Shown: piece by piece, positions 6,333-57,129 of the stretch | How positions within the stretch are numbered: the first letter of the stretch is position 1 | How the letters are laid out: the number at the start of each line of letters is the position of its first letter | NCBI GenBank assembly: GCA_030704615.1 | Contig: CM060733.1 | Coordinates: 33,046,001-33,110,000, forward strand | Direction of reading: 5' to 3' | DNA length: 64,000 nt | From: Takakia lepidozioides | Taxonomy: Eukaryota; Plantae; Bryophyta | Notes under the pieces: model-generated | What the model saw: the letters and a program-made list of their open reading frames with translations, nothing else | What the model was told of the DNA's origin: nothing | Databases searched by the model: none | Translations under genes and position numbers: made by a program

Positions 6333-6424
6333 TTTTTGGTTCGTGGGCTTGCCAAACATGGACAAGTGTCAGTATGAAAGCTCACTTTATTTTTTGACGG
6401 CCTCTACAGAAGCATTGCGTAAAT

Positions 6425-7860: not shown

Positions 7861-8029
7861 TTTCTTTAAGCACTATAACTGCTTCCACGACAATAGGACC
7901 CTCTCTAAACAAATGACTCGGGTATGGGGCCTGCTTCTTCCTCCACTAAACCCCTGGGCTCACGCTTAGAGGGCAAAGCATGAGCCGAGCTCCTAGGCTC
8001 ACGCGGCTAGGTTCACGCCGTAGCTGCAC

Positions 8030-8565: not shown

Positions 8566-8589
8566 GGACACTGTCACATGATCGGTGTG

Positions 8590-21310: not shown

Positions 21311-21424
21311 ATTGGGGGCTGGACACTAAAGGTGCTTTGGAGAGTTTGGGATGGGAACCATAGGTTGCAAGCATGGAAGGGGTACATCAATCAGGTGGGC
21401 CCTCACAAGGAGTGACATGTGAAT

Positions 21425-29900: not shown

Positions 29901-32900
29901 ATGAGACACTGCATTGCCTGAGCCATTGCTGCAATCATAATTCCAATTTGTGTCAAGATTGGCAACGGAAATGCAACTCTTTTTACAACCATCAGCATTG
30001 CATGCTCTCCTCCAGAGTCTCCCAGAAGGTATTGACGTGTGCCAACAGCTGCCCAGAGACCCATGTAGGAGAGGTACAAAAAGAAGCTGATGACCACAGC
30101 ACCAAGGGTTCCTGCTGGAATCGAATTTTCTGGTTCCCGCAGATTTGTTGCACGATCTGCCCCACTGCGCAACACAATCATTCATTCATGTAAGTAAGCC
30201 TGAGAGTACTCTTCAAGGCTCATCAGATTTCAAACGGTCCCGCTCGAGTAGTTTTCTTTTGGGATGCCAAGCATCTGATCTAGAGATTAGTCGTAGAAAT
30301 CTCACGTTCCATTGCACTATTTCAGCGGTAAAATTCCTTAGAATGCTAACTGCGCAATGAACAATGAAGACAGTATACATCGAAGTTTATGTCGCACTCA
30401 AACGAAACTACATATACGTTGGCCAAGGTGGTGTGACTCAATGTTGTACCTTAGTATTCCCGTAAAACATGGGAAGAAGAGTGACAGTGCACTCGAAAAT
30501 GAATGGCCTTTTATATACGCAGGACTCCAATTGCTTTTGAATGTCGTCCATGATAGTCCAGTTAAAGAGGTTGGTGCCTTCCCTCGAGGTGCCAGACCCA
30601 ATCCTATGTAGTATGACAACATTGTGTAGAGGACAGCTCCGAAAAACATAAGACCCAGCTTTGAGACGAATTTGATCCCAAAGAACACCTGCGAAAGACC
30701 AGCACCAAAACCCTTGAGTGTCAAACGTTGAGAAAACAGTGCTTGTGGATAAGCATGGCATACTGGACGCCTATATAGGAGTTCCCGCCTTTACATATTC
30801 ACAGGTAGACTTGAAGTTGAAGAGTTATGGATAAGAGAAATGAAAAGAAATGGAATGGTACTTTATAACGTACGCGGAAAGCTCATAGAGCTTACGGGAC
30901 AAAATGGAAGGAAACATGAGAGGAAACAAAACCAGAGCCAAAAATAAAAAACTATTGCTCGAGTGAGTGTCTAAGGGTGAAGTTCTCGTGCAGGTAAGCA
31001 GCTGTCAAGCATTTCTGATCCTCATAGTGGAAGAGAGATTGGGTTCCGCGGAATAGACAGTGGAAAGACAGGGAGCCGAGAGAAAGGAGAACTTTGGCAA
31101 TCTAGATTGACATTATTAAAATCTTGGCATGCATGTGAATCGATAACCTCACAAACAAAAGACAAAAAACTATCTACCGTTAGATATGAAACCACCATAG
31201 GTTCCACAAATTGAACATTTGAACTTCGATTCGACCCCATGACAACCACATATCATGTGCAGTGAAATGGAATATCCATGGGTCGGAGCGAGGGTGAGGC
31301 TGCAGGCAGGTGCATTCTATATTGTGAAGTTGGAAAAATGAACTTCTTAGAACATTCAACAATATTTCTCGGGTTCATAGTAGCAGCCTCACCATAATGA
31401 AGAGAACAAGAAGAATCACGGCCCCTATAACCCGATTGGCCGATGGGAAGCCAAGAGCAGGAAATGTGAATGTAATCATCTCCACTGACCCCAGCACCTG
31501 CCAACAGGGGATCCGGAGCATGCACCCATGACACGCTCGACACATTTGGGTTAATACCAACAAGTGGCGCAGAAAACCCTAGAATATCTTAGAATATCGT
31601 GTTCTATGTGTTCTCGTACAAATATTATTTGTGCTCGAATAGGTACTACAGCTCAACTTTAAAATGAAGAATCTAGAACCTGTGCACTTCGGAGTAGATT
31701 ACAGAAAACTACTGTAGTTTGCATGCACCCCTCATCATACGACCAGAGATTCAAATTTCAATTCTGTGAGTCAGGGAGTACGTAGCTGACTGGTAACATT
31801 GTGCACTACTGAAGTATAGGAGGGGACTTCTGTTGGACATAAGGTCAATCGGACGTGAAATATGGTGAAAATTTACCAGGTGTCAAACCACTACACCGAC
31901 CAGAGCATGGATAATACCGACACCTGCCTTCCACAAGGGTGTCTGCCACTCGAGCACCGCTGGGACGGTCCCCTGGAGGCACTAACTTAGGCATGCAAGA
32001 TCTTGCACTTAAGAGTTCTGCATTCCCAACTGGAAGGACGTCGGAATGGAGAGGACATAGCCTTTCAACAATTGGATGGAAAGTCATCCAATATGATGTA
32101 CAGGTCTACACATTCCAAAAAGGTATATCTACTTTGATTCTTTTGATCCGAAGCACCTTGACTCACCTCAAGCACTGAAAGCAGCACCACTCCTAAATAA
32201 TACATACATCCAACCGCACCCCCAATCTTCGGACCAAGCGCTCTCGATATTAGGTAGCTGCCACACAGCGAGAAACTGTGATCGAAGTATCCAAGGTTAT
32301 ATATATCAGCAGATAACTAAGTATAACCGAGCCAGCCAAGACCTGAGTTCTGCACCTCTCAAATATCATATATATACATATCAAGAAGACTATATGTATG
32401 ATCACAATGATACAGAAACAAGACCTCCAACAGAACTGGAGAATTTACCGCAAAACCTATTCCATTTGAAGTTCCACCAGCTGACGAGACTCAGACGTCC
32501 AAGGAGACAGAACACACTTACTAGGTACCTCCGTCCTCAATTGGTCCATTGGTGGCAATTGCGCTCAACGACATGGTTGTTAGGAGGGCACATACGAAGG
32601 AAAGCAACACAATGATCAAGGTTTGCCAGACCCCAGCATTTCCCAAAATGTAAAAGAAGCGCAAAAATATAAGAACGCCTGCAAAAACGTCCAATGTAAT
32701 ACTGAATCAGTTGGGACCAAAGTTTGAGGTCCGACGTTCGGCATGTGCTCTGAATGGCCCGACGTGATTTGAAGATTCAGTGTATTACCCCACATGTTCT
32801 CGCATGTTGGAATGAGCACCCCGCTGTAGGTGCCAAGGCCTCCTCTCCCATTGTGTCGTTTTCGTGGCAAACTGTGCCAGATGTTCTGAAATAATGCACA

Positions 32901-34086: not shown

Positions 34087-36922
34087 TTTTTGTTTTTTTT
34101 TTTTTTTTTTTTGGTGAACAGGGGGTGGAGGCCCTGGCCAAGTTTATTGAAAAGAGGGGAAAACAAAAGAGAGTGGAGGAAAAAATAACCTCTAGGGAAG
34201 CCATAAAGGTGTATCACATGGGGAACACCCAGCACTGATAGGAAGGGGGGGGGGAAACAGCAGGAACAAGCCGGATCGTGGCTAAACTATGATGCCTGAG
34301 TGATGATGAAGAAAGAGCCCAAAGTCATGAGATGAGCCAAAAGAAGGAGCTCCAGGACGATGAAGGAGCCCCAAGTCTTGAAAGGAACCAAAAGAAGGGG
34401 CAAAGGGCTGTAGTATGCTACCAATCCTAGGGGAAGGGTAACAGTATAACATGTCCTGAAAACAAAGAGACTATCAACGACCGAAATCTAGGTGCACTTT
34501 AGATTTAGAACTGTGGGTCTTGTTGTGCTTCCAATTGATGTTTGGTGCGTCCGATTCAGCCGGTGACTTGCCAAGAGACGGGGAGGAGGTCGTGCCATGT
34601 AATTCGAGAGTCATCAATTCTGGAGCAGAGGATGTCGTCTTTGGCCCAGGTGGTGTCGAAATCCGCAAGCAGCTGCCGACTCCTGTCTTCATTGCACCTG
34701 CTGATGGTTGTTTGCAAGGACACCCAAGCCTTACGCCCCTCAGTCATTAGATCCGAATACAATTTGCAGAGTATTAGTCTGATGCTGGGGAGTTTTCCCT
34801 CAAAGATCAAAACACATCTGGCCTTCCATATTGCCCATAGCGTGTGTGCTCTAAGACAGGCCCAGATCGGGCATCCATTCCACGCAGCGCTTCTATGTAA
34901 ATTAAGCAACAGGAGAGGAGCTGATAGGGCTGGGAGGGCCTGCCAATGGGAATAGAAGCCTGCCACTATAGTCCAAATCCTAGCAGGAAGCTGGCAGGTG
35001 AGCAAAACATGCTCCATAGTTTCATTGTAACCACAGTTGCACATCAGGTAGGGTCCACAGGGAGGATTTTATTGGCTATCTTCCATAAGAAAGCGCTGAT
35101 TTTGGTAGAACGGTGCTTTGCCCAAATATCCTTCCAGATTTGCTTCCATCCATTTTCCTGCTAGCTGAGGTTCCATTTTCCATTCCACTTAGCCGTGAAA
35201 TTAGCGTTGCCCAGCAACAGCTTATAGCCAATCTTGACTTTATACCCTAGGAGAGGTGTTTTCTTGGCATCCATCCAGGTCCATTCTTCCGGGTCAAGTT
35301 GAAGTTTGCTAAGGGGATAACGCAAGAACCATGTTAAGGGTGTCATTTCGGCCAGTAGAACTCTCCTCCAGGGGGTGGCTTGGGATCTAGTATCCCAGTC
35401 AGAGTTTCTAAAACTCTAATTCTAAAGGCGGATTCCTGGCACATATGCCCTTGCCCAAATATGCAGCAGGGTCCCTTCAGAGTCGACTATAAATCTTAGG
35501 CCTTCCCAATGCAATGCAGAGCTGGAGATAGCTAGTAAGGCAAAGAATCTGCCACCTTCATAATTGCCGAACCAGCAGGGGAGGCTATTCTGCGAGTTGA
35601 CTACCCCGGTCAGTAAAGGCAGAACGTATGACACTCCTTGCTTAATGTGCTCCCATCCGTGTCTGATAGAACTCGCGGAAACGAGCGTGGACAGAATGTT
35701 GGGATGCAGAAAGCCTCCATTTTCCCATATATCGGCTATGTGTGAGAGTCTTTTGGATTCCCAAGTAGCCCATTTTTTGTGAAGAGAGATGAGGGGGGCA
35801 TAGTCCAGATTGTTGTTTCCGAACAACGGCTGGCGAATTGCCTCCTCAAAGCAAAGCGCTCTTCTTTGAAACAAGTGCGGTCTGATCGACAACCATGCAG
35901 CCCAGATAGACCTCCATGCGGCACTCCCCGTGCATCTAGATTTTGCTGATCCATGGGTCAACCACCTCAGAGAAGGAGCCCAAAAGGGGGAGGTAAGACC
36001 ACCAAGTGGGCTCTCACCAAGTTGCACCAGGGACTGTCACCATGCACAAGAGCTCTTGGTATCCATTTGACAATGAGGGCTTTAATCTGTCGGGAGGGAT
36101 CAATGATGCCTAACCCTCCTTCTTTTTTGGGCCTACAAAGCTGCGCCCAGGAGACCAGAGCCCTCTTAGTGGGTGCTTGAGAGGAAGCACCTCAGAGAAA
36201 ATTACGCATCAGTGTTTTAATTTTACTGACCAGCTTACAGCCCGGGGACCAAAGAGAGGTAGAGAACTAGATGGAAGCCAACAAGATTTGATTGAGAACT
36301 AAAGCTCTGCCAGCCAGGGAGAGCATGGCGGAACTCCAAAGGCCAACTTTTTACGCAGCTTTTGTAGAATTGGCTCATACCTTTGATCCTCGGAGAGCCC
36401 GATTCCAACTTGGAATCCCAGGAGAATATGCCCCATGCCTGGTTGGAGCCATTTGAGACCTAGGTCTTGTCCCCAAGGCGCTCCATGGTGTCTTGTGGCA
36501 CTGGGGGGAAGCTCCGTAAGGAGACCCACCGATTTATTCCAATTCACCTTCAGTCCAGAAGCAGAGCAGAATACCTGCAGAGCTTCAACTGCTCTGATAC
36601 TATTGGAGTCATCCTCGTTATTCAGCAAGAAGGTGGTGTCGTCTGCATACATAGACAACTTAACAGGCGGGCCCTGCAGTAGATTCATGCCTATAATATC
36701 TTGCCTAGCAGTTAGGTAATGCCCAAGAGCATCTGCTGCTATCAAAAAGAGGTATGGGGCCAGTGGGCAACCCTGCCTGACGGATCTGTGAAGAGGGAAG
36801 GATTTAGATATGGTGCCATTAATTGTCACTTTGCTAGAGGCAGACGTAAGGAGCAACTTCACCCATCTAGAAAAGGAGGCTGGTAGGCCCATCTTTTCCA
36901 TGACTCTATGTAGGAAGGTCCT
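34087..36922 (-). mobile_element. 5'-truncated L1-like LINE (RT + zf-RVT), poly(A) tail, TSD ATTGGGTTT
   Basis: RSVRQGCPLAPYLF and YADD motifs; C..C..ETMEHVLLTC; WAIWKARC. Poly-T at 34084-34112; ATTGGGTTT at 34078-34086 and 36923-36931. Confidence 0.92.
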
Positions 36923-37050
36923 ATTGGGTTTAGAAACAATATATTTTTAAGAATTCTCCTTTTTCTTTTTCTTTTTTTTAAAAGAAAAGCAAACACGTCG
37001 AAGCGACAGCTCACAAATCAGGCCCCTTGATAGCGAGAGGAGAAAATAAC

Positions 37051-39564: not shown

Positions 39565-40280
39565 GTACCTGCAACTTTACAAAACAATTGCTTGATCATT
39601 GCCAGCGACGCAATGGCGTGAGCCTTGCGCGTGAGCGTGCGAGCGTACGCTCACGTAGGAGTGACGTGGCGTGAACCTGCACCCACGCTGACGTGGCGTG
39701 AGCGTCATGTCAGCAGGCTGATGTGGCGGCATATGATGACATGGCACTGCGCCGTCATCTGCCACGTCAGCATTAACATGCGCCGCCTATAACCGAGGAT
39801 GGTCCTATGACCGTGGGATTAATGCAGGGAATCCTTGGCTGAATACACTCAAGACGACCATGAGGCCTACAATTGTAGCATCCAACATTGTGCAATTACA
39901 AATGTTTGTTTCACTTTTACACTTACGAGGACGAGAAAATATCCTCACAAAGTGTGCGCCATAGAGGCTGCCACAGGAAGACCTTGCTCCCTCCCCACAT
40001 AACAATGAGAGTTATGATCATCTTCAAAAGATGATTGCAGTGCATAGCGACAGGAAGACATGTAGACTTCGAAAGGTGCAATGATGCATGTGCTTTTAAA
40101 AGTTGTCACTCAGAGCTCACTCAGTATAGTTGGAAGCATAATGGAGGGATAAGGGACGCCATATCATTGCACCGCCGACGATGTTGCAAACGAATTGATT
40201 TGAATTGAATTTCCATGACAATGTTGCAAATTGCACATTTCATAGCATGGTCGTCCACATACCACATTGCATAGTTCATG

Positions 40281-43200
40281 CTACCCATGTGTTGTATCCC
40301 GCTGCAGTAGAGTATCGACCTCGTTGAAACTCAGAGTGGCCTGGTGAACAAAGTTGTCACGTTTGGGATCGCAAACCATCATCTTCAAAAATATGAAATA
40401 CAAATGTTTGCAGGGTATGAATTTACCTCTCTTGCCCAAACTGGTTGATAGCATATTCACAAAATCAGGACATGTGCAATTGGGGAAATTGGAAACCGTG
40501 ATGTCGTAGGGCCTATCATGAACAACAGATGTTGAAGTGATCATTGTGTACACCCGACCATATCCTGGATCGGGCACTTCCGTGGTGCTTGCAACACGAG
40601 CTTGGAGCATTCTTGCGGACTCCACTTTGTCAAAGTGTTCAGCGGTTGGAGGGAAACGCCAAACCAACTTTCCATCTCGTTTGGTTGGCCACAAGTGAGG
40701 ATTTGCCGGAGGGACCCGAGAGGACGCAAAAGTAGTAGCACGTGCATGCAGTTGGGGTTGTCTCGCAAGGGAAAAGCCTGCCTCCTCTAGCATTGCAATC
40801 TCTTGACTTGTGAGATGTGTTCCCACCTTGACGGGCCAAACGGTTGGAGGAACTGGCTTCATCACCACGGAAGGATGCACAGTTCCATGCACACATCTAC
40901 CACAATCGTCTGCGCAGAACCAGAACTTGTGGTTCTTGGCTTCTGGTTGACCGTATGGACGCATCAAACCCGTGAAAGTGGGAGCAGGAGTCCGGGCACC
41001 ACCTCTGGATATAGATGAAGTGCACTTCTCAAAATTAGTTGCTTTGATCGCTGTACATTTCACACGAGACCCTGCACTTGTGCGTTCAATGTGCAAACAT
41101 GGTCGGGGCGTGCGGACTCAAACACATCAAGGGGGTTGTTTCTCTTCTGCACCATTTTAGTGGCACAAGCTTGATGCTGGAGCCTGCCGTCGTGTTGGAG
41201 GTTCCTCCAGAATGGAGATTCCGGACATGGATCTGTTATGCAGGGGAACACGAGGCTTCGAGAAGTTATCACGGTCTGCCCTGTGCGAATCGGAATCCGA
41301 ACCAGGTGGAGTGTTCAATTTCTTCTTATACGAGCCGAATCTCTCATCCCCTTGAAGATGTGGAACTCTAGAAACAAGTGGCATTCCCTGGGCACACATG
41401 CTCACCACCCGTGCTATCTTGCTTGGATCCCCAGATCTGTTTGTAGCACGCAACATCAACTCCAATTTGTCCGGACCCTTGCCACGAACCCCACCTCGCA
41501 AGAAATCACGGTATCTGGTTTGTTGTTGCAAGGCATATATCAGATCATCTGTTGTTGCCACATACAAATCCCGATCTTGTTTCCCAGACTGTTGCAACCA
41601 TGCGTTGTGCACAGTCTCTGCCAAATTGCAAGATGGCATGTCCGCCATTTCCTCAATGGACATATTCTGCAAAGTGGAGAACCACACTTCAGAACAATGC
41701 ACAGGGAACAACATAAAGAAAGCAAGTAGTCAAAAATATGGAAAGTAAATGTATGAATAAAGCAAGAAATAGAAGCCTCCCACCATTGTCATGGCTGCTC
41801 CCCACTGTCTGTACCGGAAGTGCCAAAATGCTAGTCAATCTTCCAATGCTCTCATACTCTCAAGCGATGCAGCTCCAGAAGAGAACCACCAGGCACGAAT
41901 TGTCTGGAACAAAACGTCCGCCTCCTTCATTGTTCTAGCATCTTTATACTCTTTGCACAATTTACGGTGCTGTGTCTGCATTTCTGGTTTGATGTCTGAC
42001 TTTGTATGTTTCTCCAGAGATTGTGTCCAATGGAATAGACATGTACGCTCTCTTCCTGGCATTGGCACTTTTGGGTTGCCCGATCCGAAGACAATTCGAA
42101 CAGCATTGAAATTCGCCTGAGCACTATCTGCCATGAAACTTGCGAAATTTGGAGATGGCAGCCCATAACACGTATCATGGAATTCCACATGAGCTTCTGG
42201 GATTCCGTATCCTCGGATTGCATGTCACAAACTGCAATTGTCATAACTCGTTGGTACACTGGATCGTAGACGTGACAAGCCATTGTCGTCCAATCTTTCA
42301 CTCGTTTCACATGATCAAACATATGAAAACAATTCTGCAAGTTCCCAGTCTTCTGCATCCGCTTCACGAGGCTAACCCCACTGCCCTCCCCAACAGTCGA
42401 CATTCTGAAAAGAATACTTTGATGGCACCTTGACCTGGAAAAACATTGTCCTGGATGTAGTCGTACTTGCTCAGTCGTTTCAATTCCAAAATATTGTCTA
42501 TGTAGCCTCTGATCCCAGAGCTCATTCTCAATGCATTGATCTGATGCCGAATGTTAAGTGAACTCAAAGTGGAGAAATGATCCATGACAACGTCCAATGC
42601 TGCACCGTCACCACAGAATCCCCTTCACTCAATATATGGCTTTCCAAGAAGGACTTGCTTGCGCCAAGAGCAATTGCAGATGTTGTTGCGGATGGGTTTC
42701 TCCCGTACTCATGTTTAATCAACCTCGAAACTGTCTCAATACTCTCCCTGTAATCCCCCTTCGAGACAGGATGGTTATGGAAACCAAAATGCACACAAGC
42801 TCTTGTCATTGTTTTCAAACGGTGGACAACATAGTACATTCTTGCTCCACACAGCGTCGGGCAGGATGGTACAAGTTTCCAGAATTTGCAAACGAAAGTG
42901 TTTGCCGGTGGAGGAGCAGTCCCAAGCTTAAATGGATTTTCCGCGAGACCCTCCCACTCGCTTTGATTATGAACCCCAGACTGAAGAAAGTGTCTGCAAT
43001 TCAAATTATCACACCTAAGGTGTTCATTGCAAACTGTTCTCCTGAAAACAAGCTTGTCATCATTTTGAATATTGGATGTTTTTGTTCTGCACCATGGGTG
43101 TCCGTCGTGTTTCTAGTCCATTCCGTGCATCATGCTTGTTATACCTCCAACTCGCGGAGGAGGAGGCAGCTCGAATAGGATATCCCCATCAAAACATTCA

Positions 43201-43774
43201 GGCAGGAACGTCATAGGCACCTGCTTCAAAGTTTCCCAATCAATTCCTCGCAACTCACTTTTGAAACCTGCAATTCCTCCCATCGCCCGTAGTTTTGGAA
43301 TCACACTAGAATGTCTTCTACATCCGCTTCCACAACTACAGTAGGAAGGACCGGAGTCGGAATTTCACTTATGTCATCATCGGACGAATCCGAAAGCTCA
43401 ACGATTGGGGTGGGGGACATCTGTTCTTTTTTCACCACCACCTCCCTCTTGTCTTCAACGACTGAAGCAGCAGTCCCGGGCGTGACATACGATCCAAGGG
43501 ACTTTCGCCATGGCTCCCCAAGCACTCTATATCTACCAGGGCGCACTCTCCACTGGCTGACATGAGCAGTCTCATCACGGTTTTGGAAAGAGTATTTCAA
43601 CAATTTCCCATCCAAATTGTACACTTCTTTCTCCAAGAAGATGGAGCCATTCTGAAGCTCAAACCGGGTAGCCAAGATATGTTCCAGAACAATTGCGAAT
43701 CCATTGTCAAGGGCTTCTTTGGAGAAATGCACTGGTTTGTCGTCAGAAAATAACTCTGCTTCGGAGGAAGTCAT
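40281..43774 (-). pseudogene. MULE transposase, copy 2 (GCM-like + DDE + Cys-rich + SWIM)
   Basis: Collinear with 2573-6173: HFGFHNHP, HMFDHVKRVK, FMADSA, CLFH, CNLAETVH, CTCPDF..IPCKHLYFIF. Same intron position (~41669-41783). Frameshifts. Confidence 0.88.
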
Positions 43775-44427
43775 GTTACGTCCCTGACCGGGGGGTTCTC
43801 TTTCATGAGCTGCTCCTTTGCGAAATCAGATGATTCGGCTTTGCACCACACTGGGTGCACATGAAATGAGGCGGAAAGCAGACGTTCCATGAAGATTGTG
43901 TATATTCTGATATTCCATATAATCATCTGTGAAGTTACGGGGGACGGTTCCTGATAATCCGCCGTCAATTTAACGTATGCAACATACAGTTTGCATTGTC
44001 TTCTGCGCAATGCCGACAGATGATACACCAAGTTATGGGGTCACCGCAAAACAATAAAAACCCGCCGACTTCCTTGAAGAAAGCAACAGGATCCATGAAG
44101 GGATGATGGCAAGATAATTGAAGTACTTAGATGATTTGTTCGGCTATGACTAGATTCACTATGTCTGATCATGTTGATGCTTTCAAGAATATGCATGAAA
44201 TGGCCCAGAACTCTCCATGTACGCATATTACATGAAATCCTAGGTAGGCCTCATACTAACTACTTTGAGAATCCTCATCCATGACGATGTATACTGATAT
44301 TAATGAAGCCGTCACAAAAAAGACACATGTCTATTTTATGTCTGCACACGCCAACAACCCCTAACAGCCGCGTAAATGAACAGCTATCCCAATTAGGTTA
44401 CGTCATTTTCACTGAAAACCTACATTC

Positions 44428-44847
44428 ATGTATCGGACACGCAAGAGGGAATCTGACGGTTCAAGGGACACTCCCAAAACGACGGAACCGCGCAAGAAAG
44501 CGAGTCTGTTCATCTTTCTTGTTTCTGCCCTTAGAGGAAGAGAGGCAGCCAAGCTGGAGAGGGTTCCTTGTTCAGTTTGGAAGAGAAGGAAGTCATTATA
44601 TTTCACATCGCTTAGAGAGAGGCTGAGATCAAGAGAGAAAATGACGAGGCGTCGCATGCAAGAAGGTGTAGCGTTTAGGCAGCATCTGAACTTGCAGGAC
44701 AGAGGTCAAGCAGAAGAGCATGTGGGAAGTGAGAGTGAGGTCGCCGCAGTCGTAGCGATGGCTGGAGCAGTGAGCGTAGGTAACCGAACAATGCCAGCCA
44801 AGTTCATTCCCGAATTCAACTGGTGTTCTGGAAACAGACATTTTTAA
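44428..44847 (+). CDS. Small basic ORF divergent from transposase copy 2
   Basis: Conserved KRRKSLYFTSLRER..KM block shared with 1625-1939. Confidence 0.55.
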   Translation: MYRTRKRESDGSRDTPKTTEPRKKASLFIFLVSALRGREAAKLERVPCSVWKRRKSLYFTSLRERLRSREKMTRRRMQEGVAFRQHLNLQDRGQAEEHVGSESEVAAVVAMAGAVSVGNRTMPAKFIPEFNWCSGNRHF

Positions 44848-44850
44848 ACA

Positions 44851-45771
44851 GTGATGATTGGTACCGACCATCACTTTGTCTCCTAACAAATGACAGTCAA
44901 TGAATAGTGATGATCGGTACCGATCATCACTTTCTGCATTTTCCGAAGAAGACTTCAGACACCCTGATGTCTTTCTAAAAATTCAAGTGATAAGGGGGAT
45001 CGGTGGCGATCGTCAGTACCTGCCATTGAAAATGACACACCCTAAACTTTCAAACCACATTTGGAATGACAAGGATGATGCAAGTGATGATCTATACCGA
45101 TCATCACAACAAGACAGCCTTGGGAGGCACACATCCATGAGGTCTGAATGTGATGGTCGGCACCGATCATCATTTTTTTCCAGAATCCTTGCCATTCAGT
45201 GTATGAGACTTGGAGCAAAGAAATGGACTTGGAAGCGATGATCGACACTAATCATCGCTTTCCGGTCACTACAATTCCAGATTGGGATGGACCTTGTACA
45301 TCGTAAAGCAAAAGGTTGCATCGATACTCTCAATTTGGGGGTAATATCCAGTCATCACAGAAACTGATGGTCGGTGCCGATCATCACCATCAGATTGCCC
45401 TAGGATACACAACCCATGAGGTCTAAATGTGATGGGCGGCACCGACCATCACTTTCCTGAACGACAACGCCATTTCCCCACTTTCTCTGAACAAGAAGGG
45501 AATGGACGTGAAAGCGAAGATCGGCACCGATCATTGCTTTTAGGTCATTTCAAGATGCTACTTAAGTTCCCTGGCACTCTTACATCACCATGAAATTGGC
45601 CTTCTAGGCTTACATAAAGCAATGGCGAAGGTGATGGTCGGTACCGATCATCACATTCCTCGTGAAACGTATACTAGCTTGTCTGCCTGCCTTCCTGAAT
45701 CTACTGCCTGCCCGCCTGGTTGCCTTCCAACTACATTATTCTGTAAAGCGATGATCACCACCGATCATCGC
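44851..45771. repeat. Array of ~11 copies of a 24-bp palindrome GTGATGRTCGGYRCCGATCATCAC
   Basis: Copies at ~44851, 44907 (perfect 26-bp AGTGATGATCGGTACCGATCATCACT), 44996, 45084, 45150, 45235, 45364, 45429, 45514, 45630 and 45748. Confidence 0.92.
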
Positions 45772-47921
45772 TTTTCTTACCTCTGGGGACCATCAGTAAA
45801 GAGGAGGAAGTGCTTGTGAGGCAACTTACGGATCCCTTCGGCTTCTTCGGCTTCTTGGCTGCATCGCTCGGATCGCCCTCTTCTGCTTTCCTCTTCCCTT
45901 TTCCATCGGTCTGAACACAAGATACACCATGTTCTTGAATCCTAGATGGAAGGGAAAACATCCAGAATAATGAAAACAACAGTATGTGGATAAGTAGTGC
46001 TCACCACTTCTGTCTGATGTAGGGTTCACAAATTTCCTCCCTGTATGGCGTCCTCTGCTCCTCCCCCTATTCTCTTGTCTTATTACTATTTTGGGTTTTG
46101 GGTATGCAGAAAAATGTAAAATCTAAGCAGGGAGAAACAGAAGAAAAGGGCTTTGGAGAAGGGGACGACTCCACGAAGAGTTCTGAGAACAGCGAAGACA
46201 CAGACGAGCCTGAATTGCACTACCTTGACAAGGTGAAAGAGCTTATGTCATATCAAAAGGTAAATTCTCAGGAGGTTATTAGGGACATGATCATCTCTGG
46301 AGGACGTCTTGAAATCCCTCTCTGCCGCATGATCTCCATGCCTATGGTTCGTCCTCCACTTTCGCATGACATTACCAAGTTGGAAACAGATTTCGTGCAC
46401 GGGTACAGAATGGGTGCACAAGTATTCTATGTCTCACTGAAGGATATAAATGGTAACAGCACAAAAGTGAGCCCAGAGATAACGGACAACTGGGATGATT
46501 GCTGGAAGGATGTGAATGACGAGTTCGAGGACTCCCTGCTACTTGGACATAACACCCAGCAGTTCTGCAACCACATGTTCTATGTCTGGGACGGGAACCA
46601 TCGCCTTCTGGCTTGAATGGGGTACATTGCGAAACACCATTCAAAAGACAAGGACAAGCATTGTGATGTGGAGGCAATGGTTCTGGATCCTGGGAATGAC
46701 ATCGCAAGACTTCTGACTGCTATGCATGATGTGAACAAGTAGGACATCCTAAAAACCCCATTGCCTTTCAAATTGCATGTTGTGCACATTTCAAGTCCAA
46801 TCGTCAAATCTTTCTTACCTATACAATGTGTATTCTCTGTTTGCAGATCGACAGAGAAATCGCATGTTACTACGAACTTGGTCCACACACTTTTCCGTAT
46901 TCAAAGAATTGGTTTGATGAAGCTTGATGAGTTCCGCACAGTGCTACATCCTGATGTAATCAAGAAGTGCGAAACAGGAAGAGCTGTAGGGACCTGGTAC
47001 TCGTTGACCCGAGATGCATTTCTGGAGTACATGTATGCGGTATGGCCCAACCCACATCTTCCTTTCTTCAAAACATATTTGTAATCCTATGTGTTCTTAT
47101 CCAATCGTTGTTACATGCAGCAAGAACTGGCAGAGGCCGCCGAGAGGGGGAAATCTGAGTACTACCGCACTACAACAAAAGAGTTGAGGACTGCTAAAGG
47201 TGTTGGAGCAGCCATAAAGAAGGAGTACGAGATAAGGAGGACGAAGCTGATGTCCGCCTTCCCGAAGCAATTGAGAATAGTGGATCCCGGACTTGGGGAG
47301 GAGTTCCTTCTCCAAATCAAAGCCCACTATGACAAGCATGTACATCCAGAGATGCAACAGGAGAAATTGCACAGGCTGGCTCTCTCCATGGTCGACCCCA
47401 GACAAAAATTAGATGGCTTCAGATTTGGAACTCGGATCAGACGGTGAAGGATCTGAATCAATTCCCAAAAAGCACAATCCAGCCTGGAACAAAGGTCGAG
47501 TGAATAAGTGACATTGTCTTTGATCAGTGGCTTCACAAGGCCACATTTTGGAGTCAGGTATTTGTGGATTGTGCATATTGTATATGAATTATCCTTTGGC
47601 TTTATCATGGCCAGTTCTGATAGATGTTCCCCCTGCAGTTGGAGAAACGCGCCATTCTTGTCCTGGAGCAGAATCTGACATTGGAGGCGTACATTAGAAA
47701 GTGGAAAGGTCTCACTTGGCGGTACTGTTTCTTCCGGGAGTTCTCCAAGGATGGTAACATATTGAGGTCGAACGATTTCGACAGTCAAGTTGGAGGGGAG
47801 TGGGCGATGATGCGTGTTGTGTACAGGTGCAATATGTAAATCTTATCCATCAAATTCTTTGAAATATTGTAATGCATCATTGGGAAAACTTAATTTTCCT
47901 TCTCTGCTACAGAGCAGTTTG

Positions 47922-48176
47922 GTGATGGTCGGTACCGATCATCACTTCCACTACTTCGATCTTCTCACGTCATCCAAATGAATATTGCAGATCATGTCTA
48001 TTTTTCCATTCTGAATCATGCCTCTGTTCACATAGGCAGTCTGTTTCTGTTGAATGAAGTGATGATCGGTGCCGATCATCACATTTCCCAGTTGTGCAGC
48101 ATAGATAATCACAATGATTTGCCAACCCACGTTGCATTCTCTCATTTGAAAGTGATGACCGCCACCGATCATCACT
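47922..48176. repeat. Three intronic copies of the 24-bp palindrome (a fourth, degenerate, at ~49359)
   Basis: GTGATGGTCGGTACCGATCATCAC (47922), GTGATGATCGGTGCCGATCATCAC (48059), GTGATGACCGCCACCGATCATCAC (48152). Confidence 0.9.
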
Positions 48177-49596
48177 TTCTGCTGCTTTTTAATATCTTGT
48201 TTTTGGGTTGGTGCTTGTTTGAGCATCCGCAGATACACTAAATATGTTCTAATGGAAGGAAAAAACCTGAGTGGAATCCCAGATTACCTGGACATGTGGT
48301 CCGACCCTGCCAACGATCCCACCATGTACACAGCTGGAATCTTGAGGGATTGGAGTCCTGCCCACTTCAGGGACTGTGGATGGTACCTCGACTGCCGTCC
48401 AGAGCACACAGAGTACGAGAGGAACATAGCTTCATTGGCCGCCAAGGAGCCAGACGCGCAGGGAACTCCACAGAAAGGCATGAATGGGGGTCGAAAGGTG
48501 AAAGACAAGGATCCAAAGGCTTCGGAGGGAGTAGCCAAGTCGCCTAGGAAGGCAAAGGAGAAAGAGAAGTCCAAGGAGAAGGAGAAGGAGAAAGAGAAGG
48601 GGAAGGAGAAAGAGAAGGACAAGGAGAAAGGAAAAGAAAAAGATGAGACAACTGGGAGATACACCAGCACTATTGAATGTGTTTTTGATGCCAAGCCACA
48701 CCCTTCCCACGCGGACTTGGCAGGGCAGAGCAAGATTGTCAATGAGGGATGGCTGGCGATGATGGAGACTCGGAGAAAACGGTACTCAGGTGTGCCATCA
48801 CCGACTTGGGATAACATGATTTCTTTTCTTAAAGAATCTTTCTCTTCACATGGGACATTTGAAATTGTCAATGCCAATGTAGATGTTGGTTTCTCTTGGG
48901 ACCCTCATTTTTTCTTGTATTAAAATTGGACCTATATGTTGCAGGTGAGCATTGGACCCTCATTCGTATGCGGTGTTCGAAAAACCTTTGCCGCTGACAT
49001 GGTCATCCTTGACATCCCAGACAGCCAGCCTGTCCGCGACGTTCCTCCAAAGGGAAAGACTCCGTCCTGGAACAGATTCGATGAGAACTACTGGAGTTGG
49101 GTATTCGGATTCTGCAATAATTTCCTTTCAGATGCAGGAATGCTTTTGCTCTTCCAGTCATGTGACAATGATAGTCGTAGGGGACTGGCAATATACCTGA
49201 AGTCGTTTGGGTTCGAAATTCTGAGGGCATGGAATTGTGTGAACATCCTCTACCTTTTGAAAGGTGGTTTCCCTGGACAGCTGGTATGGCACCACCCTCC
49301 TCCGTGCTGTTTTCCATGGCTTCTTGTTATTTCTGCTGGCTTGCTCTACCACCATCTCTGATGATCGGCAACGATCATAACAAATACATTCCGTTTTAGT
49401 TTTCATTTGCAGTCCATGTTTTGTTCCTTCCTGTGCCAGACTTCCTCCAATATTTCCATGTCTCACCCCTATCTTCCATCTTTTCCAAACGAGGATGTTT
49501 GAGGCAATTTGCCTGAGGAGGATTCGCACCTCCAAAACACCATCCTCCGTTCGCAGCTTTGAAATTTCCGATCAGGGGTGTTTCATCAACCCCCCT

Positions 49597-50448
49597 CACT
49601 ACAACAGATCGCGGTATTTATGACTGTATATATGACTATTCTGCAGTCATAAACGGTGCGTATGACTTCTATGACTGTAAGTCGTGCAAACCAAGTCAAT
49701 ACAATGAGTACAGGATGGTACGGTCCGGATGACTAGAGTCATATGAACCAAGTGATATCTCTCACTGCAGTCTTATATACCATACTGCAGCCGCCGCTGC
49801 TGCGCCACGTGGCGAGGCGCAATTGATTTAAAAAATTAAATTAAATTAAATTAAAACTAAAAAATATAAAAACATATGTCAAACGCCGCGTCGCATCGCA
49901 TTGTGCCACGTGGCATAATGCATTTTATAATTTAAAAAAAAACCACGTGGCAGTCCATCTAGGGTACCACGTGCTATCCCTAGCTCGCCTACTAACCCTA
50001 GGGCCATCTTATCCATTTGATTGTACTTAGAGGAGTTTGAACCTACAACCTCTTTACTATAAGAGTTATAGTTCACTACCTGTTAACCAATACACCCATT
50101 AGTCATTTATATGATCATATGGTGTTTTAATTGTATTATACACACCAAATTACAAAATCCCCAGTAGTCATCATGACTAGGTAACCTCATCCATGTACAC
50201 TGTAGTCATGGAAATGACTATGAATGGTGAGCTAAATCTGGTCAATTGCCGTTGACCAGCCTTCCGCCCATTCCGGAGCCATGTAGTCACACAGACGACT
50301 ATTTAGATAGTCGTTCATATGACTACAGTCGTATGAACGACTGCGGGAGGTCAATTTCATATAAAAACATGGTGCACTCATGGTCAAAATCATGAAAACC
50401 ATGACTACCACGGTTTGACAGTCATAACTACCACGATCTGTTGTAGTG
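49597..50448. mobile_element. Non-autonomous CACTA element, complete, TSD CCT
   Basis: TIR CACTACAACAGATCG(C/T)GGTA at both ends; CCT at 49594-49596 and 50449-50451; ATGACT/AGTCAT subterminal repeats. Confidence 0.95.
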
Positions 50449-50470
50449 CCTTATGAACAGCATGGATGAC

Positions 50471-53388
50471 TGTTAGAAGGCAGTCTGGGACTTAGGCATT
50501 TTTATGGGTTCTGTGGAGTCTGGGACTTAGACACTTCTATGGGTTCTGAGGGGTACCCTTAATTTTTTGAGATAGCCCGTCACAACCCGACATAGCCCGA
50601 AACAGTCGTCACAGTCTGACACAGTCGCACAGTCAGTCACAGCTGTCACAGTCGTAGGGAACGGTTATCATGACAGGGAACGACTGTGGGGAACAACATC
50701 TGCCGGGGAACATGTAATTCACGGAGGACGGTTAGTGAAGGGAAACGGTTAGAACAGGGGGGAAGGAGATAAAGCGGGCAGCGGAGACGGGAGATGATCA
50801 CTTTTTGGGGGATGGAGATCACTGCTGGGGGACTTTAGCCACGGAGATCACTCCTGGGGAAGGACTAAGATCGAAGGAAGGGAAGCTGGCGAGGAGGAAG
50901 GAGATTCTATAGGACAGAGTTAGTACGAGATGTAGGATTACTTAGAGGGATAGATTAGAGAAGTTAGGACATCAGCATGTATCCGATTATGATTAGTCTG
51001 ATTCTCATCCGATACAAACACCTTGTGTTGAGAGACTTGAGTGAAGCTGTGTATGAATGAAATCAGGGGGGGCCCAAGAAGCAATCTGACGCTTAAAAAG
51101 ATACCTGGTCATGATAAACAGGGAATATAAACTGATAAGGAATATAATTGGAAACCCAACAATGATTCACTAGCTGCAGGTCATGACTGATTGTTTCATG
51201 CGGGCTGAATGCTTAGAGATATCCAACTCTTCTATCTTGGAGTTTCCCCCTCGGATAGCGAAGGGATGGGTGAGTAAAAGCCGTGTGACATTTGGCGACC
51301 ATACTGGGGAACTGAGTCATGAACAACCAGATGTGACAGGCATCTGGTGGGATCAGTGCAACCCCAGCCAAAAAGAAACAATGATCAAGACCACTATGGT
51401 AGGACAGGTGGTTATAACAATGGCATGGAAAGGAGAGGTAATCCAAGAGGGAATTACCAGGGACATCCCAGGGGTGGCTATCAGGGTAATCCAAGAGGGA
51501 ATTACCAGCCAGGGAATCAGGATTACAGAAATAATCCCAGAACAGACCAAGGGTGAGGACCCAATGGAGAAGAACTGTGTTATTATTGTAATCAGGCAGG
51601 ACATCGTAAGGCGGCTTGTCCATTCTGGATCAGACACCAGAATGAGATGAGAGCTCATGGGAATGAGGGGCCAGTAGTGGCAGCCCACATGGTTAGGCCA
51701 TGTATTGTACCGGAAGTGAGTACAATGATAGTAACAAGAAGCAGAGCCAAATTAGTACCTCCAGTGGAAGATGAAGTTGATGATAATGAAGATGGCAATG
51801 ATGTGCCTGAAGATGATGAGGCTTGGAGAGATGAGAAGGAACTGCACAAGGAAGTGGCAGATACCATACGGGAAATGCAGAAGAGTACTGATATTCCCAT
51901 GGTAGACTCCTCAGACTCTGAAGGAGAAGAAGAAGTCAGTGAGGAAGAAGGAAAGAGGGAAGCCGCATAAGTGCAGGGTAAGGAAGGGACATTGGCTGAA
52001 GTGATATGCCAGTCCAAAGTGGAAATTACCATTGGACAGCTATTAGCTGTGGCACCTTATTGTAGACACAGGCTGTATCAAGCAATCAACAGGATTGCCC
52101 ATTTGACAGAGAACACAGACCTGAACAGCAAGGTGACCAGTTATAATGTGAGGCCAGAAGGGCAAGAAACAATCATGGATTTTGATGATTCTATGCCAGT
52201 TATCCAGTTGAGAATTGGAAGCACAGAGCTGGCAGATGTACTGATAGATGGAGGCTCTGGTGTGAATATCATGACAGACCAATTGAGGCAGAAGCTAGGT
52301 CTAAGCAACATGAAACCAACCCCATTTACAGTAACCATGGCAGACCAAAGGAGTGTACAGCCATTGGGATTGATCAGAGGAGTTAAAATCCAGATTCAAG
52401 AGATGATCTTTAAGATCACAGTAACTGTGTTGAAGATGAATGAAGTCCTAGAAGCTTATTCCTTATTGTTGGGAAGACCATGGCTGAAACAGGCCAAAGT
52501 GTCTCATGATTGGAATTCACAGTTACTGACTGTGCAGGATGGGTTGAACAAGATACAAATCACCACTAAGAAATCTGAAAGACTATCTGCTACAAGAAGA
52601 CCAAGAGGGGTCAGAGAGAGTATGATTGGAAAGAAGGACTGGATGAGGAACAGGAAGCTACTTTGTTCGCTGCACACCCAGAGTAGGAACAGGTTGTAGA
52701 GATGCAATTAGAAGGCCTGAGTTGTTTAAAAAGTATCTATTGTGGTGCAGTGACAACAACCCCAATTGAGGAGGAAATAAATAGTTACCCACCACATTTT
52801 TATGAGGAAAGGGAAGGAGAGATTGATATCCTAGAGGAACCAGCCACTGTAAGTCTACAGGATGAAATAGTAACTGGTTGGACAATCACAGCTGATGAGC
52901 AGGTGAGGGAAGTGAATGTGGGAACTGAGAAGGAACCAAGGATAGTGAAGGTAGGGGCGGATCTAGAGCCAGAATTCTTTGAGGAAGCAAAGAGTCTGTT
53001 CATTAAATACAGAGATGTATTTGCTTGGAGCTATGAGGATCTAAAGGGGATACCACCTGAGATCTGTCAACATAAGATTGAACTGGAACCAGGATCAATA
53101 CCAGTTAAACAGGCGAGATACAGGATGAATCCAACTATGCAGAGAAGGTTGGAGAAGAGATCAAAAAGTTGGCTGAAGCTAAATTTATATACCCGATAGA
53201 GTACACAACTTGGTTGTCACCCATTGTGATAGTCCCCAAGAAAAATGGCAAACTAAGAGTTTGTGTGAACTACAAGAAGCTGAATGCTTGTACGAGGAAG
53301 GATCATTTTCCTCTACCATTCACAGAAGCAGTATTGGACACTGTGGCAGGCCATGAAATGTATTCATTCATGGATGGCTTCAGTGGAG
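50471..53388 (+). mobile_element. Ty3/gypsy LTR retrotransposon, 3'-truncated (LTR, gag, protease, RT N-terminus)
   Basis: TGTTAG start; CYYCNQAGHRKAAC knuckle; protease VLIDGGSGVNIM..LLGRPWL; RT WLSPIVIVPKKNGKLRVCVNY..YSFMDGFSG, then an abrupt break. Confidence 0.92.
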
Positions 53389-55957
53389 GGACCCTATGAC
53401 TTTTTGGGGTACAAAGATGCGGGAAACACCACAAGGACAGGGGAAGCTGCACGCAGATGCAGGCTAAGAGATGGGGCAAACAAGGAATGGGTAAGAAGTA
53501 GGAGGGACTTGAAACCCTTCATACCACCAGTGGGTGATCAGCCAGTGAAGGTGGTCAGTGAGGACCCTGACACTTAAAAAGGGGGACACACTACATATGT
53601 AGTGTGAATGCAGGGGAGTGACATTACATCTTTGTTTTTCCGTTAAGACCTACATCACATAATGGGAGTGCCCGTTATCCCAACTGCAGGAGGGATGTAT
53701 CCCTGCATGCAGGTAATTTCATGGGCACACTGAGCTTATGCTTTGCCAGGAGAAAAAATGGCTAAGTCATGACAGTGCGTATTTTCATCCATGCGATGAA
53801 CGTTTTCATCACTGGTGCCAACACCACTGCTCGCAGCAGCTGCTACGAGTCACCCGTCATCTTCCTCTTTGTTTTTCTCAACCCGTGATTTTAGGCATGT
53901 TGTTGGGAGGTTGTACCTACGCTGGGGGATTTTGCTTGGTTTAGGAAGCGGCATTAAGTGCCTCTGCTTGGTATTCTGTGTAAAGGGAAGCGGTGCCGCC
54001 TCTCTCGGAGTGATGATCAATTCCAGGAGATAGGAGCATGTAAGGAGAGCGGCGCACCACCGCTGCCGCCATTGCCTTGAAGATGACAGTTATGGGCAGA
54101 TGAGCAAGCAAGGAAAACGGCCAACTGCTGGAAGCACAAAGAAGAGAGTCTGGGCACAATCAATGGGGGGGATAAAACATGTGGAGTGCTGGCTGTATGG
54201 CATCTCAGGTTCTCTGTCATCAAGCTTCTAGCTGCTTTTGTGTCTTCTTGTTATAGGACCAGGTCGATTCGTAAGAAGGAATTGCATAGAGCAATTTAGT
54301 GGGCAAGCCACAGGATGTTCCAAGGGATGAAGAGGAGCCATCATGGCATGATAAAGACTGGAATCAAGACAAGGAGAAAAGGTTGAAGTGGCTGCTGACA
54401 GGCGATGGCGAGGTGCCACCTTGACAGGCAGACCCACCGCTTCACTAGAGGATAAAAACAGATAAGTCTGTGGACTGTTGGCCTTTTTTGGGAAAACTTA
54501 GAAATTGCTTTTGGTAGATTTAGGACTGCATCTTGGTAGAAGAGAAAAGGTGGAGACATGTGATAGAGGAAAAGGTTTTTGGAAATGGAATGGATACTCT
54601 GGACTTCAAACCAGAACATGGAAAGGATGGATGCACCTGATGTTGTGGTGTCAGTAAGAGAAATGAGTGAAGAGAGAGAGAGAGAGAGACTGTTTGTCAC
54701 TGAAATCAGAATGGTCACTGTTGTCTTCATTCTTGAATCTTGTTTCAGTGTTATAAACCTACACACAATGCTGCCGTGGGTAGTGATGCACTGAAACCAA
54801 TGTAAATCTAGCTTGTTTGCCTGGAGAGATCAAATGAGGGTTAGCTGGAACTGTTGAAAACATAGAAAGGATAAGGTGATCTAAGTATGGTGTCAGGATA
54901 TGAACAACTGCGTTTCACAGTTGAAGGGAAAAGAGGGATGTTGGGGTATTTGGTTGAAATCTGAAGAAGGGATGAGAGCTGTTTGGGCAATGGGTTCTTT
55001 GGAAAAAGGTAGTGTGAAGGGCTGAACATTGACAGAGAGAGAGAGAGAGAAACAGAGAAGAAGGGACAAGAGGGAGAGAGGGAGAGAGAGAGACTGATGA
55101 AGAGGATGGTTGTGTCTTGAGAGACCGAGGATGACTTCAAGGCTGGCTGCACTGGATGCTTGGCAGAGTGTGCATTTGCATTACATGATAGATGTGCTGC
55201 TGTGAAGAAGTGAGGAGCCTGTAGACATAGACAGAGATAGAGAAACAGACGAAAAAGGGAAGAGAGAGAGAGAGAGAGAGAAAAGGGGATTTGGGAAATG
55301 AGAGAGCTGTTCAGCAAAAGGGCTGATGGGGGGGGGATGGCCAATTTGGGGAGATGAGATGAAGAAAACCTGAACCCTGAATGAAACCAATGCCTCTGCA
55401 GTTCAAGAAGACCTGAGCTGCCTTCTCCTAAATCTGTGTCACCATTACAAAAGGGGATTTCCGACGTGTCACTGCTCAAAGGGGGCTTCACACAAAGGGT
55501 CCTGTTTACCGCTGCCATTGGGCTACTTGCATCATAGAAAAGATCACGCCAACACTGTTGGCGCCGTGATCATAGGGCCAGGCTGTTGTATAGAAGTAGA
55601 ACCGAGAGCAAGAACAATTCAAAAACTCCCCATCCATGTCTTCTCTTCCGCTGCGGCGTGGATGAGGATTCCGTAAACTCTGATCACGAACGAACCTGAA
55701 GGAAAACCCATATAGCCGTGTGACGATGGTTGGACAGAGTAAGAACGCTCATTTCCTTTGCTGGGCACAATCAACTGGGGGGAGGGGAGGACCACAGCTT
55801 TAGGATTAACCAGAAGGGGATTCACGTCCCTTCTTTTCACACTACACTCACACTATCCACATGTTCGTTCAATATTGTTCCCATTTTCGAGTTCATCCAG
55901 TTTGCATCCGATTTGGAATCCTCCACAACATTCTTGATGCTTTTAGAGTCTTGGCAT

Positions 55958-56493
55958 GTGCGACTTATCGTGCTTGCAAGGTTGGCGGGAGAAGCTTTTT
56001 TGGCATGGAGGGCGACCCCGAGCTATTCAAAAGTGTCATCCTCCCTCTTGTGTCTGGCTCTACGTCTGGCACACAGACTGAACAAATTCAAATCAGAAAT
56101 GATGAGGATACCGAGGATAAGCAGATCGACAACGACTTTTCATGTGAGTAAGTCTGTCATGGAACTGTGATTCCAGTTTGGGTGCATGTTCAATTTCGCA
56201 GACATCAAATTTGCAGTAATAACTTTTATCATGTTGTGACTTGCAGGAACGACAGCGATGGATCTTCAGGAGAAAACCCCATTTGTTCCAAGACTGTTTT
56301 CAACAGTCCCCTTTCCACTTTTGTGCTTCCTGTGTATGCCGAAGCAATGACACTTCAAATGGCCGAGGCTCTATCCCCTGACTTCTTATTGCCCGATCGC
56401 AGGAGTAGCCATCGTAGATCCGAAGTTCTTAAATTCTTGGACTTGGATGCAGATGAGACAGGGATAAATTGTACTGACTCTGAGTCAAATTGA
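55958..56493 (+). pseudogene. 3' exons of the ParB-MTase-like gene: SAM-binding (motif I-III) region + acidic tail
   Basis: (G)ATYRACKVGGRSFFGMEGDPELFKSVILPL resembles G.T..AA..LGR.FIGIE.DPEY of beta-class N4/N6 MTases. Donor GTGAGT at ~56144, acceptor at ~56247. Confidence 0.6.
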
Positions 56494-57129
56494 ACTTTGC
56501 ATTTTTAATGTTCTGTTTATATGCTCTTCGGTAATGATTGAGTTCTCTTGCCTCATTGCAATTGTTTCGTCAAAAAAGAAAATGAAACAAACAATCCACT
56601 CGGATTCAAATGTCAATCTTCATGAATCCATCCCACAAACCCCTCACAAAGTGTCTATTATATCCATTGTGCATTCATGTACTGTGTATTCATGCATCCT
56701 CCATTCAAGATTGTTTTCCATTATTCAACATACATTGTACATTCATCCATTGCACTCTCATCCATCCTACATTCATCCATCTGCTTGGATTGTTTCCACA
56801 CATCCATCTATTTCTCATCCACTCTACATTCATCCATGCTGCATTCATCTGTTGCTTTCAGGTGGGAGTGACCACGTCCTTTTATTATTTCGTCCAACCT
56901 TTTTCCGCGGTTGAGGGTGCTCTTCCGCGGAAATACACTCTGCTTCTTTCTTGGCGCGCGTTGACGTGGCGTTTACGGTCGATGACATGGCGTGAGCCCG
57001 GCGACATGGCGTTCAATCCTGGTGACGTGGCGTGAGCGCTGCTGCGCTCACGCCGCAAGGGTCACGCCGAGGCATCCCTAGGTCATTGCTTGCATGTAAA
57101 TGTGTTTTATACTACTTGAACCTTATAAG

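Follow-up and report, generated by a model that had tools for sequence, protein, structure and literature searches.

Introduction

The sequence-specific escape of transposons from DNA-methylation silencing is understood from very few systems. VANC binds subfamily-specific motifs that are arrayed in the non-coding DNA of VANDAL elements (available text of PMC5735166), and VirB is described as an anti-silencer of the ParB family (available passages of PMC10653881). Bacterial-type methyltransferases also occur in eukaryotes: bdelloid N4CMT and Marchantia MpDN4MT1 are host genes with a (T)SPPY motif and demonstrated N4-methylcytosine (4mC) activity (accessible parts of PMC8885841, PMC10406627, and bioRxiv 10.1101/2021.02.12.428880). 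In the main-text passages of PMC4738411, Iyer et al. derive eukaryotic N6-adenine methyltransferase clades from prokaryotes, some of them from phage ParB-terminase loci, and describe the transposon-borne N6-methyltransferase domains of DIRS1 retrotransposons as likely inactive. Here, we analyze a stretch of 64,000 nucleotides from the bryophyte Takakia lepidozioides (GCA_030704615.1, contig CM060733.1, positions 33,046,001 to 33,110,000, forward strand), hereafter the window, which holds a Mutator-like DNA transposon; all coordinates count from the first letter of the window.

We found that this transposon carries, as a second gene divergent from its transposase gene, an intron-split gene in which a predicted ParB/Srx domain is fused to a predicted amino-methyltransferase domain. 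We propose, with a probability of about 0.5, that the product of this gene is a non-methylating, VANC-like protein of self-recognition and anti-silencing that binds the element's own palindromes.

A single gene with intact relatives and a dead copy in the window

The initial annotation, made from the sequence of the window, had proposed that peptides near 46–49 kb and at 56 kb are two halves of one gene. The four peptides that it named all lie on the + strand (WDGNHRL at 46587, ADMVILDIPD at 48993, FLSDAGMLLLF at 49122, and ATYRACKVGGRSFFGMEGDPELF at 55960), and they fall in nine exons between 46104 and 56493 that are bounded by GT-AG sites, the donor of exon 8 (after 56148) having been read directly from the sequence:

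46104..46738, + strand: exon 1, acidic N-terminus and predicted ParB/Srx-fold domain, WDGNHRL at 46587
46847..47039, + strand: exon 2, helical, following the ParB fold
47121..47557, + strand: exon 3, helical region, with a frameshift near 47445 and stops
47639..47826, + strand: exon 4
48233..48789, + strand: exon 5, conserved W...CGWYLDC segment, then a Lys/Glu-rich linker
48945..49283, + strand: exon 6, from methyltransferase motif IV (DIPD at 49011) through motif VIII
49489..49596, + strand: exon 7, first part, with a damaged acceptor, truncated by insertions
55958..56148, + strand: exon 8, with a damaged acceptor; helix that follows motif I, then motif II (GME) and the last part of the methyltransferase fold
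56247..56493, + strand: exon 9, acidic tail, by eye (inspection only) resembling the stretch after the gene in the relative L007

The protein of exon 1 (P0001) has 42 relatives at E ≤ 1e-3 among 95 candidates, and the exon with DIPD has 71 matches, 3 of which are repeat artefacts. A profile search of long proteins returned one match among 7,986 scored, the 1,147-residue Ceratodon purpureus protein KAG0631975.1. Its residues 220–723 map to 46257–48410, with exons 1–5 collinear, and its residues 1096–1136 map to 55960–56100 (E 4e-6); the DIPD exon matches the same gene model at a pairwise E of 3e-6. Given the relatives of exon 1 and of the DIPD exon, together with this collinear gene model, the peptides are not chance matches.

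The proposed union of the two halves is borne out by intact relatives and by the Ceratodon gene model, which carry both parts with an unchanged exon order. Metagenome contigs, when scanned, yielded 106 relatives, of which 80 loci were retained, collapsing to 48 distinct loci. Relatives with a named source come from Ceratodon and Riccia, which would agree with a bryophyte host. Three intact-looking copies (L007, L010, and L081) hold the whole gene in about 3.5 kb, with the same exon order and a last exon homologous to that at 56 kb. More broadly, the methyltransferase part lies on the same strand in 12 of the 23 distinct loci that have at least 3 kb downstream, and among the 20 loci in which the motif could be placed, 18 have a GT first donor at one shared codon position. 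We infer splicing across the exons from conserved GT-AG positions and a predicted gene model, not from RNA. A separate second gene at 56 kb was also considered and rejected, as the collinear relatives and the Ceratodon model join the 56-kb exon to the gene.

The insertions that separate the two parts were described initially as three and nested. Two were verified, and these are neighbors in exon 7, not one within the other (strand given where one applies):

49597..50448: CACTA-type miniature inverted-repeat transposable element (MITE) in exon 7, with a 31-bp terminal inverted repeat and a CCT duplication
50470..53390, + strand: Ty3/Gypsy remains, with gag zinc knuckle, protease, and start of the reverse transcriptase; end points approximate
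53391..55950: repetitive DNA, AG-rich, with two purine tracts

The Ty3/Gypsy remains were identified by their zf-CCHC and aspartyl protease domains and begin about 20 bp past the MITE. Other copies read through both insertion points, and it is from their differing letters there that the start of the Ty3/Gypsy remains is placed. The frame of exon 7 from 49489 is marked by differences in other copies, 9 of 11 of which fall at third codon positions (p = 0.001); the profile score of this part is not significant (E 1.4). Profile searches of 49263–55960 in the window copy did not recover the remainder of exon 7 with motifs X and I, and none of the read-through letters of other copies were located downstream of the insertions in the window. 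The peptide at 56 kb had been taken for motif I; it is instead the helix following motif I, together with motif II, since an intron comes after motif I in all three relatives examined.

The window copy is a dead pseudogene because of a stop codon in exon 1 (46614–46616, where all compared contigs of other copies have a Trp codon), the frameshift and stops of exon 3, the damage to the acceptors of exons 7 and 8, and the insertions that interrupt exon 7.

Two near-identical Ceratodon gene models (P0142 and P0143) bear locus tags of two chromosomes (1G and 4G), a pattern compatible with recent mobility. Elsewhere in the window, two more ParB-like exon fragments, each with WDGNHRL, lie tail to tail at 21335–21420 (+) and 21830–21424 (−), and adjoin the remnant of a pentatricopeptide repeat gene (about 20.6–21.2 kb), recognized by eye.

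The gene is carried by a Mutator-like transposon

The element that contains the gene has the following parts:

39603..57080: full extent of the Mutator-like DNA transposon, 17.5 kb, 6.4 kb of it being later insertions
39603..39712, + strand: left terminal inverted repeat of about 110 bp, degenerate and containing GACGTGGCG subrepeats
40284..43825, − strand: broken transposase gene, with an N-terminal Cys/His region and a SWIM finger at 40478–40412
56962..57080, − strand: right terminal inverted repeat

The element is inserted in an intron of another SWIM/MULE-like (Mutator-like element) transposase gene (37950–39565 and 57140–58020, +), whose CxxH-like motif resumes at about 57160, and the corresponding empty site is present in DNA contigs X1/X2 from one sample, which join 39593 to 57081. 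The insertion is flanked by a 9-bp target duplication, identical at 8 of 9 positions and within the 9–11 bp expected of Mutator elements. End to end, the inverted match scores 75, the best of 1,100 windows (next 56); the repeats are degenerate, at 110–130 bp, and were not clearly recovered in five decayed relatives.

Mutator elements are recognized by a DDE transposase with CxxH and SWIM motifs. In the transposase gene, these motifs were found by eye in the right order (D 42322, DxxxA 42134, CxxH 42041, and E 41630), and the SWIM domain matches at E = 0.018; the Pfam MULE family (PF10551) gave no match on the transposase fragments. The term "Mutator-like" thus rests on the duplication, the ends, and the motifs read by eye, not on Pfam.

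The arrangement of the two genes recurs among relatives. Among distinct loci flanked by 8 kb or more, a transposase lies upstream on the opposite strand in 7 of 13 (and on the same strand in 1 more) and downstream in 1 of 13 (Fisher p = 0.03). The window also contains another broken member of this transposase family, at 2348–6170 (+), with 44–78% identity by segment; no ParB gene was found in the 2.4 kb upstream of it within the window.

Subfamily-specific palindromes lie in the non-coding DNA of the element

A 24-bp dyad occurs 14 times in the window, always in the non-coding DNA of the element; the search pattern was drawn from the window copies themselves. The copies are distributed as follows:

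44851..45771: ten copies, in the intergenic DNA of the divergent gene pair
47922..48175: three copies, in intron 4
49358..49381: one copy, in intron 6

Families of at least four dyads within 4.5 kb of the ParB exon were found in 11 of the 48 distinct loci, compared with 0 of 48 shuffles (one per locus) and 0 of 12 outside segments. Across families, the palindromes range from 22 to 26 bp. Their sequences are subfamily-specific, close relatives sharing theirs, and two subfamilies carry two types. The window's own pattern has no exact match in 81 loci. A GGYRCC-type or GG..CC center is present in the window's family and in A1–A3, H, and J; families B1, B2, D, and I lack it. Covariation between palindrome arms is weak (2 pairs). 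We also considered that palindrome type might be independent of gene relatedness, and rejected this, because counting one family per locus had hidden shared second types.

The N-terminal part has a predicted ParB/Srx fold

Searches of Pfam and of PDB sequences with the window exons alone returned nothing useful, and folds were modelled on relatives (P0019 for the ParB part and P0085 for the methyltransferase part), not on the broken product of the window. In agreement with the domain suggested by WDGNHRL, the P0019 model (predicted local distance difference test score, pLDDT, 84) matches ParB/Srx proteins in both VIA and Foldseek. Against 48,161 chains, VIA returned 8 at Z ≥ 5 (Z 5–7.6), all of the ParB/Srx fold, counting Atu1540, which we take to belong to it. 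The top matches are PadC (Z 7.6, root-mean-square deviation [rmsd] 4.1, 116 aligned) and KorB (Z 7.5, rmsd 2.6, 94 aligned); SerK and SbnI are also among the top fold matches. In Foldseek, Noc, ParB, KorB, and sulfiredoxin rank first (best E 1.3e-3). These Z values are middling, yet the matches are unanimous and the motif agrees, and a ParB/Srx fold is predicted.

Within this part, G164, R167, and A170 are at least 90% conserved. The boxes of cytidine triphosphate (CTP)-specific ParB proteins read ELxxSIxxxGxxxP (Box I) and GERRxRA (Box II) in the available passages of PMC10653881. The family reads L..DF.HGY and GNHRL.A, and the Ser and Pro of Box I are absent. As judged from these motifs, the family's boxes are closer to the Srx/SerK type than to the CTP-specific one, and CTP would therefore not be the obvious ligand. 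In the model, helices follow the ParB domain and align poorly to ParB helix-turn-helix domains. By language-model features, P0019 also scores 0.95 against fungal DUF3723 clusters (8 of 30 matches), while Pfam gave no match for the ParB part and no paper was found joining both terms; DUF3723 is described as a conserved cargo gene of Starships (accessible text of bioRxiv 10.1101/2021.12.13.472469).

The constant linkage to the transposase, the ParB/Srx fold, and the likeness to a Starship cargo gene would also suit a transposition accessory like mudrB, that is, a ParB-type clamp or bridge that gathers the element or aids its insertion or segregation and has no role in silencing. We consider this unlikely: the palindromes are concentrated in the promoter region that the two genes share and in introns of the second gene rather than at the element ends, the transposase copy at 2.3–6.2 kb shows no ParB gene within 2.4 kb upstream, and the link to DUF3723 lacks Pfam support.

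It is more improbable still that the palindromes are hairpins, cruciforms, or transposase sites and that the protein is captured cargo with another substrate, such as a SerK/SbnI-like kinase or an RNA binder. The G-N-H-R of Box II, which is as in the Srx/SerK type and not GERRxRA, the rank of SerK and SbnI among the fold matches, and the slight arm covariation are consistent with such cargo. However, the palindrome families track the gene subfamilies and lie around and within the gene, and the other domain of the protein has a DNA-methyltransferase fold.

The C-terminal part has a predicted beta-class methyltransferase fold with an altered motif IV

Relatives have the beta-class order that had been read from the window, namely a permuted Rossmann fold with motif IV before motif I. 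The P0085 model matches CcrM (16.6), M.MboIIA, M.PvuII, and bdelloid N4CMT (16.4) at Z 16.2–16.6 over about 200–230 residues, and the Ceratodon protein matches PF01555 above its cut-off (30.4 vs 26.7 bits).

The deviant motif IV noticed in the window proved, on checking in relatives, to be family-wide. The census comprises 66 sequences (71 matches minus 3 repeat artefacts and 3 gapped rows, plus the Ceratodon protein) and was seeded with a DIPD-type query. Position 4 is E in 33, D in 22, K/S/N/T in 10, and F in 1, and position 1 is D in 53, E in 9, Q in 3, and N in 1. With D or E at position 4 in 55 of the 66, DIPD is therefore the state of the family rather than a product of decay, subject to the choice of query. 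Thus, instead of the catalytic (D/N/S)PP(Y/F), the window reads DIPD, and an aromatic residue occupies position 4 in 1 of 66 relatives; the Ser at position 1 of the eukaryotic 4mC writers, whose motif is (T)SPPY, occurs in 0 of 66.

The aromatic residue of motif IV is needed for catalysis. In motif I, the Asp and the last Gly are kept in 12 of 12 sequences, the Phe of F-x-G-x-G in 0 of 12, and the first Gly in 4 of 12; the Glu of motif II is kept in relatives. The Ceratodon member, with D-T-P-F, groups with the D-V-P-E copy L081 in the ParB-domain tree (98/98; 44 rows, loci with fewer than 100 aligned residues left out). From these residues, S-adenosylmethionine (SAM) binding may persist, and canonical catalysis by the domain is doubtful.

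A further possibility, to which we give limited weight, is that the protein is an amino-methyltransferase, active despite a non-canonical motif IV, and would write 4mC or N6-methyladenine (6mA) at the palindromes (for example, at a GGYRCC-type core), marking self or blocking 5-methylcytosine (5mC). The complete beta-class fold, with Z 16.6 to CcrM and 16.4 to bdelloid N4CMT, would be expected of such an enzyme, as would the conserved Asp, Gly, and Glu of the SAM pocket, the D-T-P-F of Ceratodon with its match to PF01555, and the 6-bp dyad core shared among distant subfamilies; bdelloid N4CMT, moreover, marks transposons and repeats (available passages of PMC8885841). It is at odds with the 65 of 66 relatives that have no aromatic residue at position 4 and the 13 of 66 that have no Asp at position 1, as well as with the loss of the Phe of F-x-G-x-G in 12 of 12 and of the first Gly in 8 of 12.

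Discussion

We favor the reading of the product as a non-methylating, anti-silencing protein because of the anatomy of the element, the linkage of its two genes, the distribution of the palindromes, the loss of the aromatic residue from motif IV, the predicted folds, and the precedents. According to this proposal, a dimer would load at the dyad sites, and the ParB/Srx domain would bind a nucleotide and control how the protein loads or spreads along the element. The methyltransferase fold, with its SAM-pocket residues kept, would act as a DNA-gripping or methyl-sensing module. With these sites occupied, host 5mC silencing would be kept off the divergent promoters, in the way that VANC protects VANDAL and VirB counteracts H-NS.

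Several points weigh against this proposal. Binding, nucleotide gating, and the effect on silencing are all steps that we infer. A palindrome family of at least four members is missing from 37 of the 48 loci, many of them short or decayed, and none is found in L007 and L010, which look intact, as far as their contig DNA was searched. Two palindrome types coexist in some subfamilies, the palindromes could be bound by the transposase instead, and the weak arm covariation also fits hairpins. The helices after the ParB domain fit ParB helix-turn-helix domains poorly. As for the methyltransferase part, the conserved residues of the SAM pocket (Asp and final Gly of motif I, 12 of 12; Glu of motif II) may speak for retained activity, as may the nesting of the Ceratodon D-T-P-F among D-x-P-E members in the ParB tree; in addition, the motif IV census was seeded with a DIPD query.

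A wider and more tentative idea is that bryophyte Mutator-like transposons co-opted a ParB/parS-like device, in which a nucleotide-gated clamp would load on fast-evolving palindromes and spread, with the methyltransferase domain reading or writing a private mark. If true, the clamp would provide subfamily self-recognition against host silencing and represent a ParB/parS-type system in eukaryotic chromatin, possibly paralleled by the DUF3723 of fungal Starships. The family would be a second, independently built candidate for anti-silencing, made of bacterial folds and with target sites legible for each subfamily. Binding, nucleotide use, and methylation are directly testable subfamily by subfamily, and an intact-looking gene model is present in the model moss Ceratodon purpureus (KAG0631975.1). 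Should the D-x-P-D/E form be active, it would extend the chemistry of amino-methyltransferases and add a source of 4mC/6mA in plants.

Origin searches and other features of the window

No donor relative was found among viral contigs, and tblastn against phages gave none. In 185,579 prokaryote genomes there was one match, L081, a contig in a cyanobacterial genome bin. It has introns at plant positions and is for that reason read as plant DNA, likely contamination; L081:1-4691 is an intact-looking, intron-containing copy with palindromes of its own. The donor searches were word-limited, so a prokaryotic or phage donor could escape them.

Other features of the window are as follows:

2348..6170, + strand: second broken transposase copy described above
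6354..7862: tandem repeats, period about 120 bp
8183..10092, − strand: Gag-like region, then a C5 DNA-methyltransferase fragment with PCQ (PF00145, E 1.5e-6)
23930..31590, − strand: multi-exon host gene, by eye cation-chloride cotransporter-like
34559..36946, − strand: long interspersed nuclear element (LINE)-like remnant with reverse transcriptase (PF00078, E 3.9e-16)

Comparison with known systems

A full-text literature search, with most subscription papers and all supplements outside its reach, found no description of this element. The clades of Iyer et al. are similar in being prokaryotic transfers and in including likely inactive methyltransferase domains on transposons; their ParB-linked family differs, joining a helix-turn-helix of the ParB type to a group-2 Dam-like enzyme in chlorophytes and chytrids, and the main-text passages of PMC4738411, supplements excluded, contain no bryophyte family that is permuted and borne by Mutator elements.

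With the beta-class amino-methyltransferases (CcrM, M.MboIIA, and M.PvuII; PF01555), the family shares the fold and the motif order IV...X-I-II. It differs from them in reading D-[ILV]-P-[DE] for (D/S)PP(Y/F) and D-x-x-A-x-T-G for DPFxGxG, and in being split by introns and fused to a ParB/Srx domain. Bdelloid N4CMT and Marchantia MpDN4MT1 likewise place a bacterial-type beta-class fold in a eukaryote, whereas the gene described here is multi-copy transposon cargo without SPPY, as compared by the structure of N4CMT and the described motif.

The ParB/Srx nucleotide-binding fold and the conserved G-x-x-R-x-x-A are common to ParB, Noc, KorB, and VirB and to Srx, SerK, and SbnI, and the first four, with their parS-type sites, resemble this family also in having associated dyad sites. 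In contrast to ParB, Noc, KorB, and VirB, Box II here is G-N-H-R and not GERRxRA, and the Ser and Pro of Box I are absent.

VANDAL and VANC offer the same combination of a Mutator-like element with an accessory gene, and of short subfamily-specific motifs in the introns and intergenic DNA of the element. The motifs of VANC are 8–9-bp non-palindromic tandem arrays, as far as the available text of PMC5735166 describes them, whereas those found here are dyads of 22–26 bp; likewise, anti-silencing has been demonstrated there for VANC and is proposed here by analogy. The present protein is built from other folds, predicted to be of the ParB/Srx and amino-methyltransferase types, and its likeness to VANC would be one of function.

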